This document shows positions 2,023-9,730 of a stretch of DNA of 64,000 nt, piece after piece (position 1 is the stretch's first letter; every line of letters starts with the position of its first letter). Under the pieces are notes generated by a model. The model made no database searches, was not told the origin of the DNA, and saw nothing but the letters and a program-made list of their open reading frames with translations. Position numbers and translations under genes: made by a program. The stretch is from UHGV virus genome UHGV-0229283. One strand, written 5' to 3'. The DNA comes from a virus.

Positions 2023-2470
2023 TTTTGCTCTCCTCATAGAACTTAATCCACTTCTTAGTTGATTTGATACCACCTTCCAAAGACTTGTCCCTCTGAACCG
2101 CCACCTGCTCAACAATACGGTTCTGTAGAGCAAAACTCATGCGATCCCCCAACCTACGGAATGGATTCCCCTTGTACCCATTGCCATTATGGATGCTAAC
2201 TGCATCCTGTAACGAGATAAAGAATGGGCGACAAATCTTTTTACATCGAGGGAATGCAAGCTGGTAGCCAAAGCGACCATCTTTAACTTCTGGGAAGTTA
2301 GAAAGACGACGAGGGACATACCCATAAGCAGACATCATCTCGTCAAGAGAGGCCATTTGGATGTGGGTAGTGTCCATAGCTTTTTCAGAGCGAGGAACCT
2401 GCCATTGATTCCATACTTCAAGTTCTTTGCGGAACTTTTCTACCAGCTCCAGACGAGAATATGATGCCAT
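2012..2470 (-). CDS. hypothetical protein
   Basis: 152-aa ORF with an AGGAGAAAATAATG start context. Confidence 0.5.
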   Translation of the reverse strand: MASYSRLELVEKFRKELEVWNQWQVPRSEKAMDTTHIQMASLDEMMSAYGYVPRRLSNFPEVKDGRFGYQLAFPRCKKICRPFFISLQDAVSIHNGNGYKGNPFRRLGDRMSFALQNRIVEQVAVQRDKSLEGGIKSTKKWIKFYEESKNAG

Positions 2471-2479
2471 TATTTTCTC

Positions 2480-3787
2480 CTAAAATTTTCCTGGGAATGT
2501 GTCTTTGTAGAATTTAACAATTCTTTGGTCTACGATAATATCACGTTCTTTAACCGGACGCAACAATCTTAAACCTTTTGTAGAAGTGGCCCTGCTAAAG
2601 GCAACATAGGCCATCCCAGGAGCAAAAGCTCCATAACCAAAGTCTATATTAACCTCTGGCAAAGTCAAGCCTTGAGCTTTGTGAATGGTCACTGCATAAC
2701 CAAGGCGAATGGGTAAGTTTGTGTATGTTCCAACAACAATCTTTTCCAATTCCTCTTCAGTCTTACCATTCTTGATAACCTTTCTTGGGAAGTATTCAAC
2801 ATTTTCCCAGACATTCTTTTCGATCTCTACAACCTTGCCGTCTTCCAGTTCTACATCTACCGAAAACTTCCTTAGGGCCTTGATAATACCCCGTGTTCCG
2901 TTTACAAATTTAGGACCGTCTTCATCTGGATTCTGATCATTAACGGTGATCATGACACGAGTCCCTACCTTGAGGTGTAGACTCTCAGCAACTGGACGCT
3001 GGGCAAAATCTCCTGTTTTGGAGGCTTTGTAAATAACCTCTTCACCCGGTATCTGATCGTAATGCTTTTTGTTGATACGTTCCGCCGCGGCATTAGTTGA
3101 AGTCAGGGTAATCGCATTCAGTGCTGCACCTTTTGAATAGCACTGATTGTTGAGGAATTTAACTATTTCATCAATACGCTCGCCTTTCCTCATATGATTC
3201 AACAACGATGAAAAATGCACACTGTTTTGACGATAAATCTTGTCAAGAAGTACAGGGTATGGATTTATCTCTCCCCAAGTGTCTGAGAAACACGATAATT
3301 CTGTGCTGTGGAGTTCGAAGTAAGCGTTTTCTTCAGAATCTGTCAGAACTGGAGGGTTCTGAAAGAAATCACCAAACATTATGACCTGAAGACCGCCGAA
3401 AGCTTTCTTAGGCTCCCTTCTCGCAACACGTAGTTTCTGATCCATTTCCCACAATTTGTCGGCTCGCACCATAGATATTTCATCAATAATGATACGCTCA
3501 AGAGATTTGCTTTTTAAAAGTTTTTTAGGTTTAGTTTTTACTGTCTTACCATCATTTTCTGTGGCTATCCCCATTGATAACCCGAAAGCTCGATGAGTTG
3601 TCATTCCATCAACATTAAGTGAAGCGACCCCTGTCGGGGCCACTGTTAATGTTGAACTTGGATACAGGGATTGGATTGTTTTGATCAGATGGCTCTTGCC
3701 ACTACCACCAGGTCCCGTAATGAAAACGTTTTTGCCTTCAATGATAGCACCTAAGGCCTCTTCCGTTCCCACTCCAAAATCAGACAT
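2480..3787 (-). CDS. SF1B DNA helicase, Dda/RecD/Pif1-like
   Basis: Walker A GPGGSGKSHL and Walker B IIDEISMV. At 435 aa it is close in size to T4 Dda. Confidence 0.75.
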   Translation of the reverse strand: MSDFGVGTEEALGAIIEGKNVFITGPGGSGKSHLIKTIQSLYPSSTLTVAPTGVASLNVDGMTTHRAFGLSMGIATENDGKTVKTKPKKLLKSKSLERIIIDEISMVRADKLWEMDQKLRVARREPKKAFGGLQVIMFGDFFQNPPVLTDSEENAYFELHSTELSCFSDTWGEINPYPVLLDKIYRQNSVHFSSLLNHMRKGERIDEIVKFLNNQCYSKGAALNAITLTSTNAAAERINKKHYDQIPGEEVIYKASKTGDFAQRPVAESLHLKVGTRVMITVNDQNPDEDGPKFVNGTRGIIKALRKFSVDVELEDGKVVEIEKNVWENVEYFPRKVIKNGKTEEELEKIVVGTYTNLPIRLGYAVTIHKAQGLTLPEVNIDFGYGAFAPGMAYVAFSRATSTKGLRLLRPVKERDIIVDQRIVKFYKDTFPGKF

Positions 3788-5022
3788 TAATCCTCCTTAT
3801 CGAGATAAATTTCGTCCAGGATAGCACCCCTTACACCCACAACAATAACATCAGGAGCACCTGCTGGCTTTTCTTTTCCTGTCAATACCTCATAGCGGCA
3901 GCAGCGGCATTTCTTGTTATTGTAGTTATATGGTACGCTAACAATGTCTGCCGGGTCAACAGATACCTCAACCACATTACCATAATCACGGGCATATTCC
4001 TTGGAGGCGATATGTAAACCCTGGCTACAAGCTTTGGTTGGGTCATCTTCAACCATGTTTCTTGGCATAGTGACTGTGGTGTTAGCCCAGTTAGGGACCA
4101 AGCCTGTGAACCAGTCACGAGGACCATTCTCAGTGCGTTTAAGACCCTTGTAGGCCAAGATGTTGCCATTCTCCAGAATCTCGAACTTGTTATGCTCCAA
4201 GAAGTCGTACAGCATTTCAACCGATTTGTAAGAAGGATTGAGCATCAGCTTCCGCATGAACTCGACATAACGGTTATCGAACTTCCCCGTCTCGATATCG
4301 GAAACAATACGGCGAGCAATACCGCTTTCTTGTTTGATACCGTGCCAGTACAGAATTCCGTCTAGCAGCTTCATATCCGGTCCAAGGTCGATTGCCACTT
4401 CAGCTTTTGCAGCGATCCCCGCTTCAATAAGCGCTACGGCTTCGTCGATCTTGTTGTTTAACAGCAACATACCGACGTCGTTAAAGATTTCGCTGTTACT
4501 GCCCAGAGTATGAATGGTTCCATCTGGAAGTGTGATGGAAACGTTGCCTGGTGTCATGATGACAATGGGATCAGCTTTCGTGTCATCAACAACCGAAATC
4601 TTAATAGGCACAGGTGTAGGTTCTGGAAGCTGAGGAACAGTAACGCTCACTTCTACATCAGAAACCACGAACACCACTTCCCAGCGCTTACCACGCTTGC
4701 CAAGGTCCTTGACAACTCCCTCCTCTTTGTCATGTCCTGCTGTTGTCTTTGCATGATCGATAATCTTCGCATTCTGTACAGTCTTAGAGAATGCTCGGGC
4801 CTCTCCACGACTCGCAAAGAACATAGAGGCAGTTGGCGCAGGGTAAGTTTCCATATCGAAGGAAATCGTCTTTTCCGGGGAAGCACCAATACTGTCTTTG
4901 GGGACAACCATCCAACGCCCCTCTGCCAGCACCGCTGGGGATACACCACGGTCCACAACCTTCATACCACGACTTGCAGCACAAACACGAGCATCTGCAC
5001 GGGATTTAAAAAGATCACTCAT
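3787..5022 (-). CDS. hypothetical protein
   Basis: 411-aa ORF translationally coupled on both sides (ATGA overlaps). No recognisable motif. Confidence 0.55.
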   Translation of the reverse strand: MSDLFKSRADARVCAASRGMKVVDRGVSPAVLAEGRWMVVPKDSIGASPEKTISFDMETYPAPTASMFFASRGEARAFSKTVQNAKIIDHAKTTAGHDKEEGVVKDLGKRGKRWEVVFVVSDVEVSVTVPQLPEPTPVPIKISVVDDTKADPIVIMTPGNVSITLPDGTIHTLGSNSEIFNDVGMLLLNNKIDEAVALIEAGIAAKAEVAIDLGPDMKLLDGILYWHGIKQESGIARRIVSDIETGKFDNRYVEFMRKLMLNPSYKSVEMLYDFLEHNKFEILENGNILAYKGLKRTENGPRDWFTGLVPNWANTTVTMPRNMVEDDPTKACSQGLHIASKEYARDYGNVVEVSVDPADIVSVPYNYNNKKCRCCRYEVLTGKEKPAGAPDVIVVGVRGAILDEIYLDKED

Positions 5023-7179: not shown

Positions 7180-7710
7180 TCATGCCCCCTGAGAATCTTC
7201 TTTCTCTTTATAATATATATGGTTATCGATCCTGACTGTGCGTAGCATGGCCTTTGTCCAGTAGGGTTTTACTTTTCGTGAATGGTAGTGGGTTGCTCCA
7301 TGTGTTATGTCCAGAGCATCGTAGACGATCCTGTTTTGTTTATGAATCTTGATCAGAACTTTTGCAAACTCTTGTGCCTTCTCCCAGCGATCCTTTTCAT
7401 AGACTTTAAACGTTGTTCCTGAAGATGTCCAGGAGAATTGTCCGGGCTGGTAGACGATCTTTTTTACTGTTCCAGGGTACTTATCGTTATCCTTACGATT
7501 CAAAGTTACGAATGCGATCGACATTAACCCGGAATCACTCTCTCCACGAGCTTCTTTGTACATGTTGCAGGCTAAAATGTTTACCACTGTATCATCTTTT
7601 TTGCACAGATGAATTACCTTGGGCTTCTTTGCGTTGTCTTTAGCCAGTACAGGTGTGGTGGCTAGAGAAAACACACAGGCGGTTGCCAGAATCAGATTTT
7701 TCAATTTCAA
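7180..7710 (-). CDS. secreted cell-wall hydrolase, SleB/Hydrolase_2-like
   Basis: CNMYKEARGESDSG...YPGTVKKIVYQPGQFSW motifs. The likely start is a TTG giving the signal peptide MKLKNLILATACVFSLATTPVLA, with a GGAGTG Shine-Dalgarno. The ORF-track start at 7737 lies inside the tnpB terminator hairpin. Confidence 0.6.
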   Translation of the reverse strand: MKLKNLILATACVFSLATTPVLAKDNAKKPKVIHLCKKDDTVVNILACNMYKEARGESDSGLMSIAFVTLNRKDNDKYPGTVKKIVYQPGQFSWTSSGTTFKVYEKDRWEKAQEFAKVLIKIHKQNRIVYDALDITHGATHYHSRKVKPYWTKAMLRTVRIDNHIYYKEKEDSQGA

Positions 7711-7720
7711 ATTTACACTC

Positions 7721-7750
7721 CAAATTAAAAGCCCCATTGCGGGGCTAAGA
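7721..7750 (-). terminator. rho-independent terminator after tnpB
   Basis: On the minus strand, AGCCCCGCAATGGGGCT is followed by TTTTAATTT immediately after the tnpB stop codon. Confidence 0.5.
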
Positions 7751-7760
7751 TGCTATAATT

Positions 7761-9014
7761 TTACTTATGGGTCAACCCCTTATTAAGGATATTTTTTGCA
7801 GCATTAATGTCTGCATTCTCAGTATGACCGCAAGAAATACATAAAAATTTAGCTTGTGTTTTCCTGTTTTCTTTTGATACATACCCACATCCAGAGCACG
7901 TCTGAGAGGTATATGCTGGATTAACAATCATTAACTCACTTCCGTACCTGATCGTTTTGTAAGCTAACTGCATACGTACCGAGTATAGACTCATATTTAG
8001 AATCTCTCGGTTAAGCCCTGTTTTAGCCTTCACATTTTTACCAGGCTGTTCAATCGTTCCTTTTGACGATTTCGTCATATTGGAAACTTTCAAATCTTCC
8101 AGAACAATTTTGTAGGATTTTGTAGCCAACTTTTTAGTAAGTTTGTGGCAGGCGTCTTGGCGAATACTCCCTTGTTTGGACTTGCGTACAGTGATCATTT
8201 CGCCAAGCTTTTTGTATCTTGCGCTGCCTTTCTGGCATTTGGCTTGCTTACGTTGAAGAATACGAATACGTTCTTCAAGAGCCTTTAACGATTCTTTAGG
8301 ATACTCCTCATGCCATGCTGTTTCACTATCTGAATCATAGCATGTTGCATACTGTGCAACACCTAAGTCAACACCAACACACATTTCCCTTTTATTAGAG
8401 ATCTGATAATAATCTTCGTCAGGTATTTCAAAGATGAAAGCAACATACCAGTCACCAGCAGTTTTGCTGAACGTGGTATTCATAAGTTTCCCATTCAGGA
8501 TACGTGCAGGTATCTTATCTCCCAGTTTCATCTTTCCAAGTCTGTTGTGGATGATGTAAGCCCCAACGTCATCAAGATTCTTTTCCTTTTTGAAGTCTGT
8601 ATTGCTTAATTTAAAACCTTTCCTGCGATGCTTTGATTGAAACTTGGGTCTGCCTCCAAGCTTTTTGAAGCATCGCTGCCATGCCTCTTTGAGGTCATAC
8701 TTTATAGCAAGCTGGCCAACACTACCGGGTATCCCATTTAACCATGTGTGGATTCCTGAGCCTAACATTACTCCAGATTTTGTTGGCTTTTTAAAACCGA
8801 GAGGGTATTTACCTTGGTTAAAAAATTTATCGTATTCATTTATTTTTGCCAATTTCCATTTTTCATCAGGAGATAGGGTTTCTTGGTCTATGAAACATAA
8901 CCCTAATGCATAATTAAAAGCATAACGTCTGGCGTTGCTCCAATGAAGAAGAGTGCTGTTTTGGCGATTATTTGTACCAACTTTTGTTTTAAAACCTACC
9001 ATCATGATAATCAT
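7761..9014 (-). CDS. tnpB: IS200/IS605-family TnpB (OrfB), RNA-guided nuclease-like; no tnpA partner
   Basis: Split RuvC motifs are present: GVDLG (I), VLEDL (II) and ADINAAKNI (III). A C-terminal zinc ribbon CSGCG...CISCGH follows. 417 aa. Confidence 0.85.
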   Translation of the reverse strand: MIIMMVGFKTKVGTNNRQNSTLLHWSNARRYAFNYALGLCFIDQETLSPDEKWKLAKINEYDKFFNQGKYPLGFKKPTKSGVMLGSGIHTWLNGIPGSVGQLAIKYDLKEAWQRCFKKLGGRPKFQSKHRRKGFKLSNTDFKKEKNLDDVGAYIIHNRLGKMKLGDKIPARILNGKLMNTTFSKTAGDWYVAFIFEIPDEDYYQISNKREMCVGVDLGVAQYATCYDSDSETAWHEEYPKESLKALEERIRILQRKQAKCQKGSARYKKLGEMITVRKSKQGSIRQDACHKLTKKLATKSYKIVLEDLKVSNMTKSSKGTIEQPGKNVKAKTGLNREILNMSLYSVRMQLAYKTIRYGSELMIVNPAYTSQTCSGCGYVSKENRKTQAKFLCISCGHTENADINAAKNILNKGLTHK

Positions 9015-9099
9015 CTACCTGCGCTGTTAAAGTTCATTCCGACAGTACCACACTACGTGAGGAACGTGATAGAATGGAGAGTTCGTGCATACAGTCCAG

Positions 9100-9247
9100 A
9101 GGTTATCCCCACATATTTTGGGGGCACCTGATATCTGTGATACGCTAGGAGGACTACATCGGTTTATCCCACATTGTGGGGAACACGGGCAGCGATTTGT
9201 AGCGATCCGGGTTGGCCTCGGTTTATCCCCACGCATGTGGGGAACAC
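9100..9247 (-). CRISPR. mini-CRISPR array with type I-E-like repeats, 3 repeats and 2 spacers
   Basis: The minus-strand repeat is GTGTTCCCCACATGCGTGGGGATAAACCG (29 nt). Repeats lie at 9219-9247, 9160-9186 and a degenerate terminal copy at 9100-9128. Spacers are 32 nt (9187-9218) and 31 nt (9129-9159). The degenerate repeat sits at the leader-distal end. Confidence 0.7.
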
Positions 9248-9463
9248 TCTAACCGTAAACATATGGCAACCTTAGTGTTTTAAGCCCACTTAAAATCTAC
9301 CGAGTTGTGTTCCCAAATTTGTAGAGATAGGAGCAAAGCTCCTGAAGGACTTATGCAACTAAGTTGCAGCCCCCTTCTTCCTTCATAGACTCGCTAATGC
9401 TTATCTCCAGAAGCATAACTTCGGCGTTAACCACACCTAGAGGATTGGCTCCCAACAAGAGAC

Positions 9464-9492
9464 ACTATACAGTGTCTCTTAATTGGAGTCAA
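9464..9492 (-). promoter_or_regulatory. sigma70-like promoter driving leader, array and tnpB
   Basis: Minus strand: TTGACT, a 17-nt spacer, then TATAGT. The perfect palindrome AGAGACACTATACAGTGTCTCT (9458-9479) overlaps the -10 and +1, so it may be an operator. Confidence 0.5.
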
Positions 9493-9538
9493 CAATTATT
9501 TTCTAAGAATATCCCCTGAAACTGTTTTCACATTACCT

Positions 9539-9730
9539 TCAATAAACTTCTGTTCTGGTCTCACCACTTTTAATGATCCTCGCTTTTTGGGCATGATAGA
9601 CAAACTGTTTGTTCTCTTTAACAAACTTTTTGCCCTGTTCTTCGTCTTCGAAAATCAAGGTATCACACTCGGTGAAAGAATGTCCAGGCCTTTTTTCAAC
9701 AGACCGCGTTGTGGCTACAATGAGGGACAT
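9539..9730 (-). CDS. hypothetical protein
   Basis: 63-aa ORF with a TAATG overlap to the RNA ligase gene. Confidence 0.45.
   Translation of the reverse strand: MSLIVATTRSVEKRPGHSFTECDTLIFEDEEQGKKFVKENKQFVYHAQKARIIKSGETRTEVY

Follow-up and report, generated by a model that had tools for sequence, protein, structure and literature searches.

Does a TnpB nuclease carried by a phage take its guides from the CRISPR array that lies beside it, or are the two chance neighbors? The question is raised by a cassette in the viral genome UHGV-0229283, in which a tnpB gene follows a short repeat-spacer array. We analyzed a 64-kb stretch of this sequence (the window), to which all coordinates refer, and the elements of the cassette are read on its minus strand. 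A sequence-only reading of the window had listed a promoter, leader region, repeat-spacer array, tnpB and terminator on one strand, all of which we found on the minus strand, and had offered two explanations, namely a proto-Cas12 system with CRISPR-type guides or a TnpB that had landed next to an array by chance. We favor the former because of the linkage of the unit across relatives, the homology of part of the supposed leader to omega RNA, and the covariation of a loop in this RNA with the repeat. On these comparisons the cassette is probably a self-contained, mobile, TnpB-based type V-like CRISPR module of a grade like that of the transposon-CRISPR intermediates (TranC) and Cas12n, in which a type I-E leader and array, acquired by capture, have taken the place of the guide module.

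Scaffold, leader and array upstream of tnpB

Between the promoter and the first repeat lies a non-coding stretch of 210 nt (9457-9248), which the sequence-only reading had taken as leader throughout. That assignment holds for the 3' 82 nt (9248-9329), which are a genuine type I-E leader, but not for the 5' part of about 128 nt (9330-9457), which covariance modeling and covariation identify as a putative omega-RNA-type scaffold resembling a trans-activating CRISPR RNA (tracrRNA). A covariance model built from the 73-nt 5' domain of the scaffold (A3/R1, hereafter R1) and run on the window with filters off gave a single match at 9372-9443 (88.9 bits, E = 1.9e-18), and it recovers all units of the family. 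With scores of 23-37 bits the model also matches 13 ordinary IS605-type tnpB genes, as well as the insertion sequence (IS) in Klebsiella phage FBKp34, in each case around the stop codon; since this is the region of tnpB that encodes omega RNA, the scaffold is homologous to the 5' domain of the omega RNA of IS605-type TnpBs. The earlier suggestion that an omega RNA be sought at the 3' end of tnpB (about 7600-7900) was misplaced, in that neither sequence comparison nor the filters-off scaffold model found one there and the only scaffold copy in the window is that at 9372-9443. A canonical omega RNA at the 3' end, which that reading had named, along with repeat processing by host Cas6e alone, as the find that would speak against CRISPR-type guides, is accordingly not present by the covariance model or Rfam, and an Rfam search of the region and of the relatives' scaffolds gave no matching family.

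The scaffold comprises a 5' hairpin, GGUGU[GGUUA]ACGCC (9437-9423), with the loop bases GGUU at 9432-9429, as well as a helix domain that covaries, a variable hairpin and, as its terminal hairpin, GGAGCUUUGCUCC (9342-9330). The stem of the 5' hairpin covaries (CCU/GGG, GGU/GCC, GGC/GUC), and compensatory changes at 17 of 23 pairs lend support to the rest of the scaffold. Between the window and Salmonella phage KE23, 70 of 72 scaffold nucleotides are identical, while the synonymous sites of tnpB are saturated (dS, the synonymous substitution rate, about 1). Exact-pattern scans for the scaffold yielded three metagenome loci that were informative and a single viral contig, the remaining four matches being chance occurrences in coding DNA.

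Each repeat ends in AACC, directly 5' of the spacer, and the loop GGUU is complementary to these bases. When 18 units were compared, all 72 of 72 cells were paired, with double-sided changes at each of the four pairs; none of 500 shuffles reached the observed value, and a slid partner gave at most 69%. Most units carry GGUU/AACC, and compensatory variants are found in four lineages: GGUC/GACC in Photobacterium (L076), AGUU/AACU in one unit of the contig L069 (L069_a), CCAU/AUGG in L067 and GAAA/UUUC in the upstream unit of phage L066. That last unit has a different repeat type (...CCCCACATACGTGGGGGTGTTTC), which we take to be a Klebsiella type I-E repeat, and the downstream unit of the same phage pairs as GGUU/AACC; as a contrast of sequences, the two units amount to a natural swap experiment. 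A pseudoknot is needed by the omega RNA of ISDra2, and where related TnpBs have canonical omega RNAs, pairing is possible, at five of seven loci, between the equivalent loop (GGACA or GGGCA) and the tail ...GGAUGUCAA, which sits between the terminal hairpin and the guide. Taken together, the homology of the scaffold to omega RNA and the covariation of its loop tie the array RNA to the RNA partner of TnpB; the locus would thus have, as judged by comparison only, a tracr-like RNA that derives from omega RNA and is complementary to the repeat.

The 70-85-nt segment that precedes the repeats in the units of the family is, by its sequence, a true type I-E leader. In the window it carries ...TCGGTAGATTTT... 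and ends ...GGTTAGA against the first repeat, and over about its last 60 nt it aligns with the CRISPR-1 leader of E. coli K-12. The leader-proximal block of the sister locus in Klebsiella phage KP13-16, CAAATGCATACTTTTAGA, agrees with that of K-12, CAAATGTATACTTTTAGA, at 17 of 18 positions (the window at 13 of 18), and the junctions of leader and repeat read CAAATGTATACTTTTAGA|GAGTTCCCC in K-12 and CAAATGCATACTTTTAGA|GTGTTCCCC in KP13-16. The mini-array (9099-9247) consists of three repeats and two spacers: repeat R1, GTGTTCCCCACATGCGTGGGGATAAACCG (29 nt, 9247-9219), spacer 1 (32 nt, 9218-9187), repeat R2 (27 nt, 9186-9160), spacer 2 (32 nt, 9159-9128) and a degenerate repeat R3 (9127-9099). 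The core of repeat R1 is found a single time in the 64 kb, where chance would predict 0 occurrences. With a 29-nt palindromic repeat ending ...GGGGATAAACCG (the K-12 repeat being GAGTTCCCCGCGCCAGCGGGGATAAACCG), 32-nt spacers and a 61-nt period, the array has the properties of a type I-E array, and the earlier description of its repeats as I-E-like was borne out.

Two irregularities were noted here. The leader contains an inverted partial copy of the repeat, GGGAACAC (9314-9307), whose reverse complement, GTGTTCCC, forms the 5' end of the repeat; some 24 nt around it look like a degenerate repeat in inverted orientation. The upstream units and the downstream unit of L066 have this segment, and the other units lack it; a role for it as an anti-repeat to the repeat 5' end was rejected, as it is missing from many units (downstream units and the upstream unit of L066). 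Repeat R2 in the window (9160-9186), in the locus L006, in KE23 and in KP13-16 has a deletion in the 3' half of its stem, GTGGG-ATAAACCG for GTGGGGATAAACCG. The orthologues have lost 1 nt there and the window 2 nt, and yet the flanking spacers differ completely. Simple acquisition at the leader-proximal end, with duplication of repeat R1, does not easily account for this.

The nuclease, its relatives and the spacer targets

The tnpB gene (7761-9014) encodes 414 residues from the start codon kept in homologues (ATG 9005), or 417 from ATG 9014. The protein has the Pfam domains OrfB_IS605 (PF01385) and Cas12f1-like_TNB (PF07282) and scores 207 bits against the NCBIfam model guided_TnpB (NF040570; cut-off 100); its scores for IS200_TnpB (135, cut-off 425) and IS607_TnpB (139.5, cut-off 350) are below threshold, as are those for the Cas12 families of NCBIfam. 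The RuvC-I, -II and -III motifs and the intact zinc ribbon that had been read from the sequence were confirmed, in the form of the catalytic residues D213, E303 and D399 and the CxxC pairs C370/C373 and C389/C392. An AlphaFold model (mean predicted local distance difference test score, 87.5) shows no disordered tail and has its best fold matches in the TnpBs of ISDra2 and ISFba1 and in Cas12f, led by ISDra2 TnpB (8H1J; E = 3e-22, template modeling scores 0.69/0.78). The closest solved structure by sequence is Cas12n (9J09, E = 3.4e-37), with which the similarity covers the RuvC/TNB half only. With a ratio of nonsynonymous to synonymous substitution rates (dN/dS) of 0.05-0.15 against relatives, tnpB is under strong purifying selection, and from sequence and model the nuclease looks functional. 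No Cascade, Cas3, Cas6e or Cas1-2 genes adjoin the array in the window, where tblastn with eight K-12 type I-E proteins and the Cas1e and Cas2e proteins of Vibrio gave a best E of 0.06.

A search of 5.8 billion proteins yielded homologues in a graded series, from 93% down to about 40% identity, and we compared their contigs. From 96% down to 40% identity, the scaffold, I-E leader and I-E-like repeats adjoin tnpB, so that the search for conserved leader-array-tnpB synteny proposed by the sequence-only reading returned the scaffold-leader-repeat unit throughout; related phages with tnpB and no array, which would have argued for chance, were not found, the one exception among the relatives examined being L067, with a single repeat-like hairpin. 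Each copy of the unit opens with a conserved RNA-like segment (about 130-150 nt), which 70-85 nt separate from the I-E-like repeats. A TnpB/Cas12-type effector is stably associated with a CRISPR array across these relatives, which occupy varied genomic sites in phages of several lineages, on a conjugative plasmid and in islands of Photobacterium and Vibrio; the view of a single system caught in a phage gives way to that of a family spread over phages, a plasmid and bacteria.

The unit lies upstream of tnpB in the window, L006, L083, L084, KE23 and L070, and downstream of it in Vibrio agarivorans (L073/L074, 10 repeats), Photobacterium angustum (L076, 9 repeats, in a defense island), L072 and the conjugative plasmid L086 (3 repeats). 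KP13-16, L062, L063-65 and L066 have units on both sides, and L069 has three. In this last contig (Logan SRR12284446, 988-3276) the three units are in tandem around one tnpB and differ in their pairing (AGUU/AACU vs GGUU/AACC), and from their sequences the units seem to duplicate and diversify as modules. The Vibrio locus encodes Cas1e (370 bits) and Cas2e (120 bits), both above the NCBIfam cut-offs, with no Cascade genes within 10 kb; at the Photobacterium locus neither Cas1e, Cas2e nor Cascade genes were found. In L074 (BLAT01000001, 10001-15649), two TnpB-like genes (452 and 506 residues, 38% identical to each other) flank cas1e-cas2e, with two arrays of different 29-nt repeats in opposite orientations, and the locus lies between serine recombinase genes.

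Close relatives carry entirely different spacers, and the metagenome locus L084, whose TnpB is 96% identical, has the array of the window plus one extra repeat-spacer unit. Spacer 1 of the window matches at 32 of 32 nt a site adjoining AAG in the Klebsiella plasmid NZ_CP122577, a 6.5-kb plasmid that encodes a primase, a serine recombinase and a protein resembling a recombination directionality factor. Spacers of KP13-16 match an E. coli island beside tRNA-Thr and a 120-kb K. pneumoniae phage-plasmid, and a spacer of L062 matches the same phage-plasmid. The latter (p2B30155; L059, NZ_CP074582), which encodes a major capsid protein, is hit at 2501-2532 and 4900-4931, and these matches suggest a recurrent conflict between it and the phages KP13-16 and L062. 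A spacer of L006 matches an E. coli island, and one of plasmid L086 matches virB4 of another plasmid. The 5' flanks of the six protospacers on which inference of a protospacer-adjacent motif (PAM) rests are AAG, AAG, GAG, GAG, GGG and AAA, with A at -2 in five of six and G at -1 in five of six, that is, an AAG-type PAM in a small sample. AAG is the PAM of the E. coli type I-E system, and the flanks fit I-E adaptation and interference and the AAN PAM of Cas12n alike.

When 8 + 28 spacers were compared with 50,697 phage records, including the empty site of Mydo-like phages, there was no match except to self, and we rejected anti-phage or homing guides on this basis. A copying of the spacers from host arrays was likewise rejected, as the matches in E. 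coli and plasmids are not flanked by repeats.

Proposed mechanism, competing explanations and known systems

Under the explanation that we favor, a single transcript would supply both the tracr-like scaffold and the CRISPR RNAs (crRNAs). The I-E repeat, as a hairpin with an 8-nt tail, would replace the terminal hairpin and tail of a canonical omega RNA, and its tail would pair with the scaffold loop, rebuilding a pseudoknot beside the guide. TnpB would then take the 32-nt spacer as its guide and cut DNA bearing a 5' RAG-type motif, while the type I-E Cas1-Cas2 of the host would install new spacers at the phage-borne leader. Such adaptation by host proteins would explain both the differences in arrays among near-identical phages and the tracking of enterobacterial I-E types by the repeat type. 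The targets would be small plasmids or integrative elements and the phage-plasmid of Klebsiella and E. coli, and since these are mobile elements, the likely role is competition between mobile elements during infection. TnpB is, by comparison, the best candidate user of the crRNAs because the scaffold is obligatory, its loop covaries with the repeat tail, and the gene is under purifying selection with no other guide; host Cascade may also use the same crRNAs.

Several observations weigh against this reading. The idea of a loop-tail pairing was formed on the same sequences that were used for its test, and the contact is short, at 4-5 bp, albeit supported by four independent lineages; the equivalent pairing was seen in canonical omega RNAs at five of the seven loci inspected, and we take it as suggestive only. 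The fold of the scaffold as a single sequence is not unusually stable (z = -1.57) and is uninformative. The scaffold is set apart from the first repeat by the 82-nt leader, and the canonical position for it downstream of tnpB is empty in the window. Of the two spacers in the window, a target is known for just one. Finally, the repeats, leader and PAM are exactly what the I-E Cascade and Cas1-2 of a host require.

This last point leads to the alternative that the array is a hijacker used by host Cas6e and Cascade-Cas3 (and Cas1-2) alone, against competitors of the phage, with TnpB an unrelated selfish or domesticated neighbor that makes no use of the spacers. Repeats, 32-nt spacers, leader and AAG/GAG flanks that are all typical of type I-E would then be expected, the L066 array with its second I-E repeat type would be matched to host machinery, and the window indeed encodes no Cas proteins. 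We nevertheless regard it as unlikely, as it leaves unexplained why the array always follows an omega-type scaffold and always sits beside a TnpB of this clade, in at least five unrelated genomic contexts, why the scaffold loop covaries with the repeat tail, and why a TnpB with no other guide RNA in the window is under strong purifying selection; moreover, the Vibrio and Photobacterium loci carry 9-10 repeats and yet lack Cascade genes within 10 kb, even with Cas1e and Cas2e encoded in Vibrio. Were the cassette a decaying remnant instead, an orphan nuclease whose functional 3' scaffold-array unit has been deleted and whose upstream unit is a leftover, one could point to the second unit that follows the stop codon in the sister loci KP13-16, L062, L063 and L066 and is missing in the window, L006 and KE23, where about 14 nt follow the stop. 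An upstream-only layout is, however, found in six window-type loci and independently in L070 (TnpB 47% identical); the near-identity of the upstream scaffold in the window and KE23 has outlasted the saturation of synonymous sites, with dN/dS low; arrays still gain or lose units among near-identical phages; and spacer 1 perfectly matches an extant Klebsiella plasmid. Decay is therefore a quite improbable account.

The position of the cassette in an intergenic hot spot, occupied in relatives by HNH homing endonucleases, and its presence at different sites in unrelated phages, are what one would expect of RNA-guided homing or retention, whereby TnpB and the array would spread the cassette among co-infecting phages through cleavage of sites that lack it, the role that TnpB has in IS200/IS605 elements. 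Since no spacer of any locus matches the phage records, the Mydo-like empty site included, and the spacers that do match point to plasmids, a phage-plasmid and chromosomal islands, this account is the least probable of those considered, and we give it very little weight. We therefore return to the TnpB-based CRISPR module. A more specific version of it, namely that the class 1 I-E repeat is a drop-in for the 3' module of an IS605 omega RNA, through which the TnpB of a virulent phage is re-armed with spacers from host Cas1e-Cas2e, we hold tentatively, at somewhat short of an even chance. If true, class 1 and class 2 immunity would here form a chimera that leaves adaptation to the host and whose crRNAs may serve both the phage TnpB and host Cascade; type V arrays could arise by capture of a class 1 array, not by duplication of omega RNA; and a 414-residue effector with a purine-rich (AAG-like) PAM would have a scaffold loop that can be retuned to repeat types, as in L066.

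Among known systems, the nearest in kind are the TranC systems, which are reported (Jin et al. 2025) to have arisen by the splitting of omega RNA into tracrRNA and crRNA. They too have a TnpB-like effector of about TnpB size beside a short array, with the omega RNA (also reRNA, right-end element RNA) split into a tracr-like scaffold and crRNA, and some are borne by phages, such as CauTranC9 with about 414 residues. The characterized clades are reported to have repeats of 32-38 bp of unknown subtype, whereas those here are 29 nt with 32-nt spacers and a leader homologous to that of type I-E; here, too, the scaffold can sit upstream behind its own promoter, and the contact is one of 4-5 bp between loop and tail in place of a long anti-repeat. 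These descriptions set the cassette clade apart from the characterized TranC clades, although it may be among the at least 24 TranC clades of Jin et al. (2025) or in the trees of Altae-Tran (2023).

Cas12n (type V-N, formerly V-U4/C2c9) is also miniature and tracrRNA-dependent, besides providing the closest solved structure by sequence. Its PAM is 5'-AAN, with the A at -2 critical, which fits the AAG, GAG and AAA flanks of the cassette protospacers, and C2c9 loci have no adaptation module and have a PAM in common with co-occurring type I systems. Cas12n differs in its expanded REC and WED domains and in a tracrRNA that lies inside an unstructured C-terminal tail of the open reading frame (ORF), neither of which the window protein has; the latter is 414 residues with an ISDra2 TnpB-like fold, and its scaffold lies upstream behind a separate promoter. 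The Cas12r-CRISPR systems of Thermus phages (Lalka; bioRxiv 10.64898/2026.04.20.719267), with 29-bp repeats, 32-33-bp spacers and no adaptation genes, resemble the cassette in combining a phage TnpB-like nuclease with a short array and a PAM that overlaps the host I-E AAG, in the proposed adaptation by host I-E proteins and in spacers that target integrative elements. As described in the same preprint, Cas12r is a 564-residue protein of a thermophile-specific TnpB branch with its array downstream and no tracrRNA, whereas the cassette has an omega-type scaffold and resides in enterobacterial phages.

With canonical IS200/IS605 TnpBs the window protein has family and fold in common, and the scaffold 5' domains are homologous; the 3' module of the canonical omega RNA (terminal hairpin, tail ...GGAUGUCAA and guide) is paralleled by the I-E repeat hairpin, AUAAACCG and the spacer. 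Unlike these elements, the cassette has no TnpA, no left or right ends (LE/RE) and no flank-derived guide; the array would supply its guides, and its scaffold lies apart from the gene's 3' end. Host-type repeats borne by phages are likewise seen in phage mini-arrays, solitary repeat units, RNA anti-CRISPRs (Racrs) and the type I-F system of ICP1 (see also PMC10651486). ICP1 is likewise reported to aim its spacers at a parasitic mobile element and has a full Cas set, which the cassette lacks, and Racrs are solitary repeats with no functional spacers, in contrast to the bona fide leader, perfect protospacers, single-protein nuclease and scaffold RNA found here. An identity with the Cas12 'hacker' Cas12p was rejected, as that is a different family of 500-700 residues. 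The window protein, then, fits neither canonical IS-borne TnpB nor Cas12n proper and is best described as belonging to the TranC/early type V kind, from which it is distinguished by the I-E-derived leader and repeats, the short loop-tail contact, the modular units that can be placed upstream, and its occurrence in cultivable enterobacterial phages.

The origin of Cas12 from TnpB is accepted, and few natural intermediates show how a transposon guide gave way to an adaptive array. The cassette family offers one concrete route, in which the omega-RNA scaffold would be kept, the guide-proximal hairpin and tail swapped for an I-E repeat, and the contact between them held by compensatory mutation, with adaptation supplied by the I-E leader and, in Vibrio, Cas1e-Cas2e. 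Because the system is present in cultivable virulent phages of Klebsiella and Salmonella (KP13-16, KE23), these steps are directly testable under native conditions. The ecological role pointed to is that of a phage acting against a plasmid, phage-plasmid or integrative element, and on the practical side the cassette would provide a very small nuclease with a putative non-T-rich PAM.

Promoter, boundaries and insertion site

The window derives from a Mydovirus-like Klebsiella phage (Vequintavirinae), and its flanks share 95-96% identity with KP12, KB57, Mydo and others. Compared with about 35 related phages, the cassette stands out as an insertion; among 47 related records, it is found only in Salmonella phage KE23 (Seunavirus), at the same site. 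Klebsiella phage KP13-16, of a different subfamily (Stephanstirmvirinae), has it elsewhere, among tRNA genes; from its presence in both KE23 and KP13-16, the promoter, non-coding region, array and tnpB travel together.

The cassette's left boundary falls immediately upstream of the -35 element of a sigma-70-type promoter, TTGACT-17 nt-TATAGT (9464-9492), which agrees with the consensus at 10 of 12 positions and is kept in all upstream units. Its -10 element is spanned by a perfect palindrome, GAGACACTGTATAGTGTCTC (GAGACAC TGTATA GTGTCTC, 9461-9480), which is also kept in every upstream unit and might serve as an operator or terminate the gene upstream. At the other end of the array, a linker (9006-9098) with the ribosome-binding site AGGTAG (9020-9015) leads from the last repeat to tnpB; no terminator was found in it, and read-through into tnpB from the array promoter is thus possible. 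The gap of 86 nt given earlier between the last repeat and tnpB was approximately right, the measured distance being 84 nt to ATG 9014 and 93 nt to ATG 9005. Past the tnpB stop codon the cassette extends for only about 14 nt, up to the right boundary at 7746/7747. The intrinsic terminator beyond it, AGCCCCGCAATGGGGCT followed by TTTTAATTT (7730-7746, minus strand), had been thought to belong to tnpB; it is ancestral phage sequence, base for base the same in cassette-free phages such as Proteus phage Mydo and BIS47, and so is not the cassette's own.

Relative to Mydo and Klebsiella phage BIS47, window 7747-9542 stands in place of two small genes, Mydo_015 and Mydo_016. A remnant of the 3' end of a Mydo_015-like gene (...IEGNVKTVSGDILRK*, 9496-9543, minus strand) marks the ancestral insertion site, between this gene and the endolysin, and was joined to the Mydo_017 homologue (ORF 9539-9730) by a secondary deletion. 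Compared with Mydo (2254-3021), window 9496-9730 and L006 have lost Mydo_016 and most of Mydo_015; a full Mydo_015-like gene is still present in KE23. That tnpA and obvious IS ends are missing, as first noted, was confirmed: no tnpA is present, the neighbors of the cassette are the endolysin and conserved phage genes, and no IS605-type LE or RE was found at the boundaries defined against Mydo, BIS47 and FBKp34. An IS605 insertion next to a transposon-adjacent motif at the empty site was considered, given a TTGAT near the Mydo junction, yet the boundaries do not fit. Genes for HNH homing endonucleases occur in the same endolysin-proximal intergenic regions of BIS47 (2202-2804) and KE23 (1996-2625), which marks this region as an insertion hot spot for selfish nucleases.

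Klebsiella phage FBKp34 (MW394390; 900-2640, minus strand) retains the cassette promoter and the 5' domain of the scaffold, the latter matched by the covariance model R1 at 2498-2569 with 80.9 bits, while the rest of the cassette is replaced by a different, canonical IS605-type tnpB. Complete omega-like RNAs flank this gene, one upstream (2316-2389) and one downstream (978-1051), and both end in ...GGATGTCAA; from the sequence the arrangement looks like an IS that inserted into, or recombined with, a former cassette.

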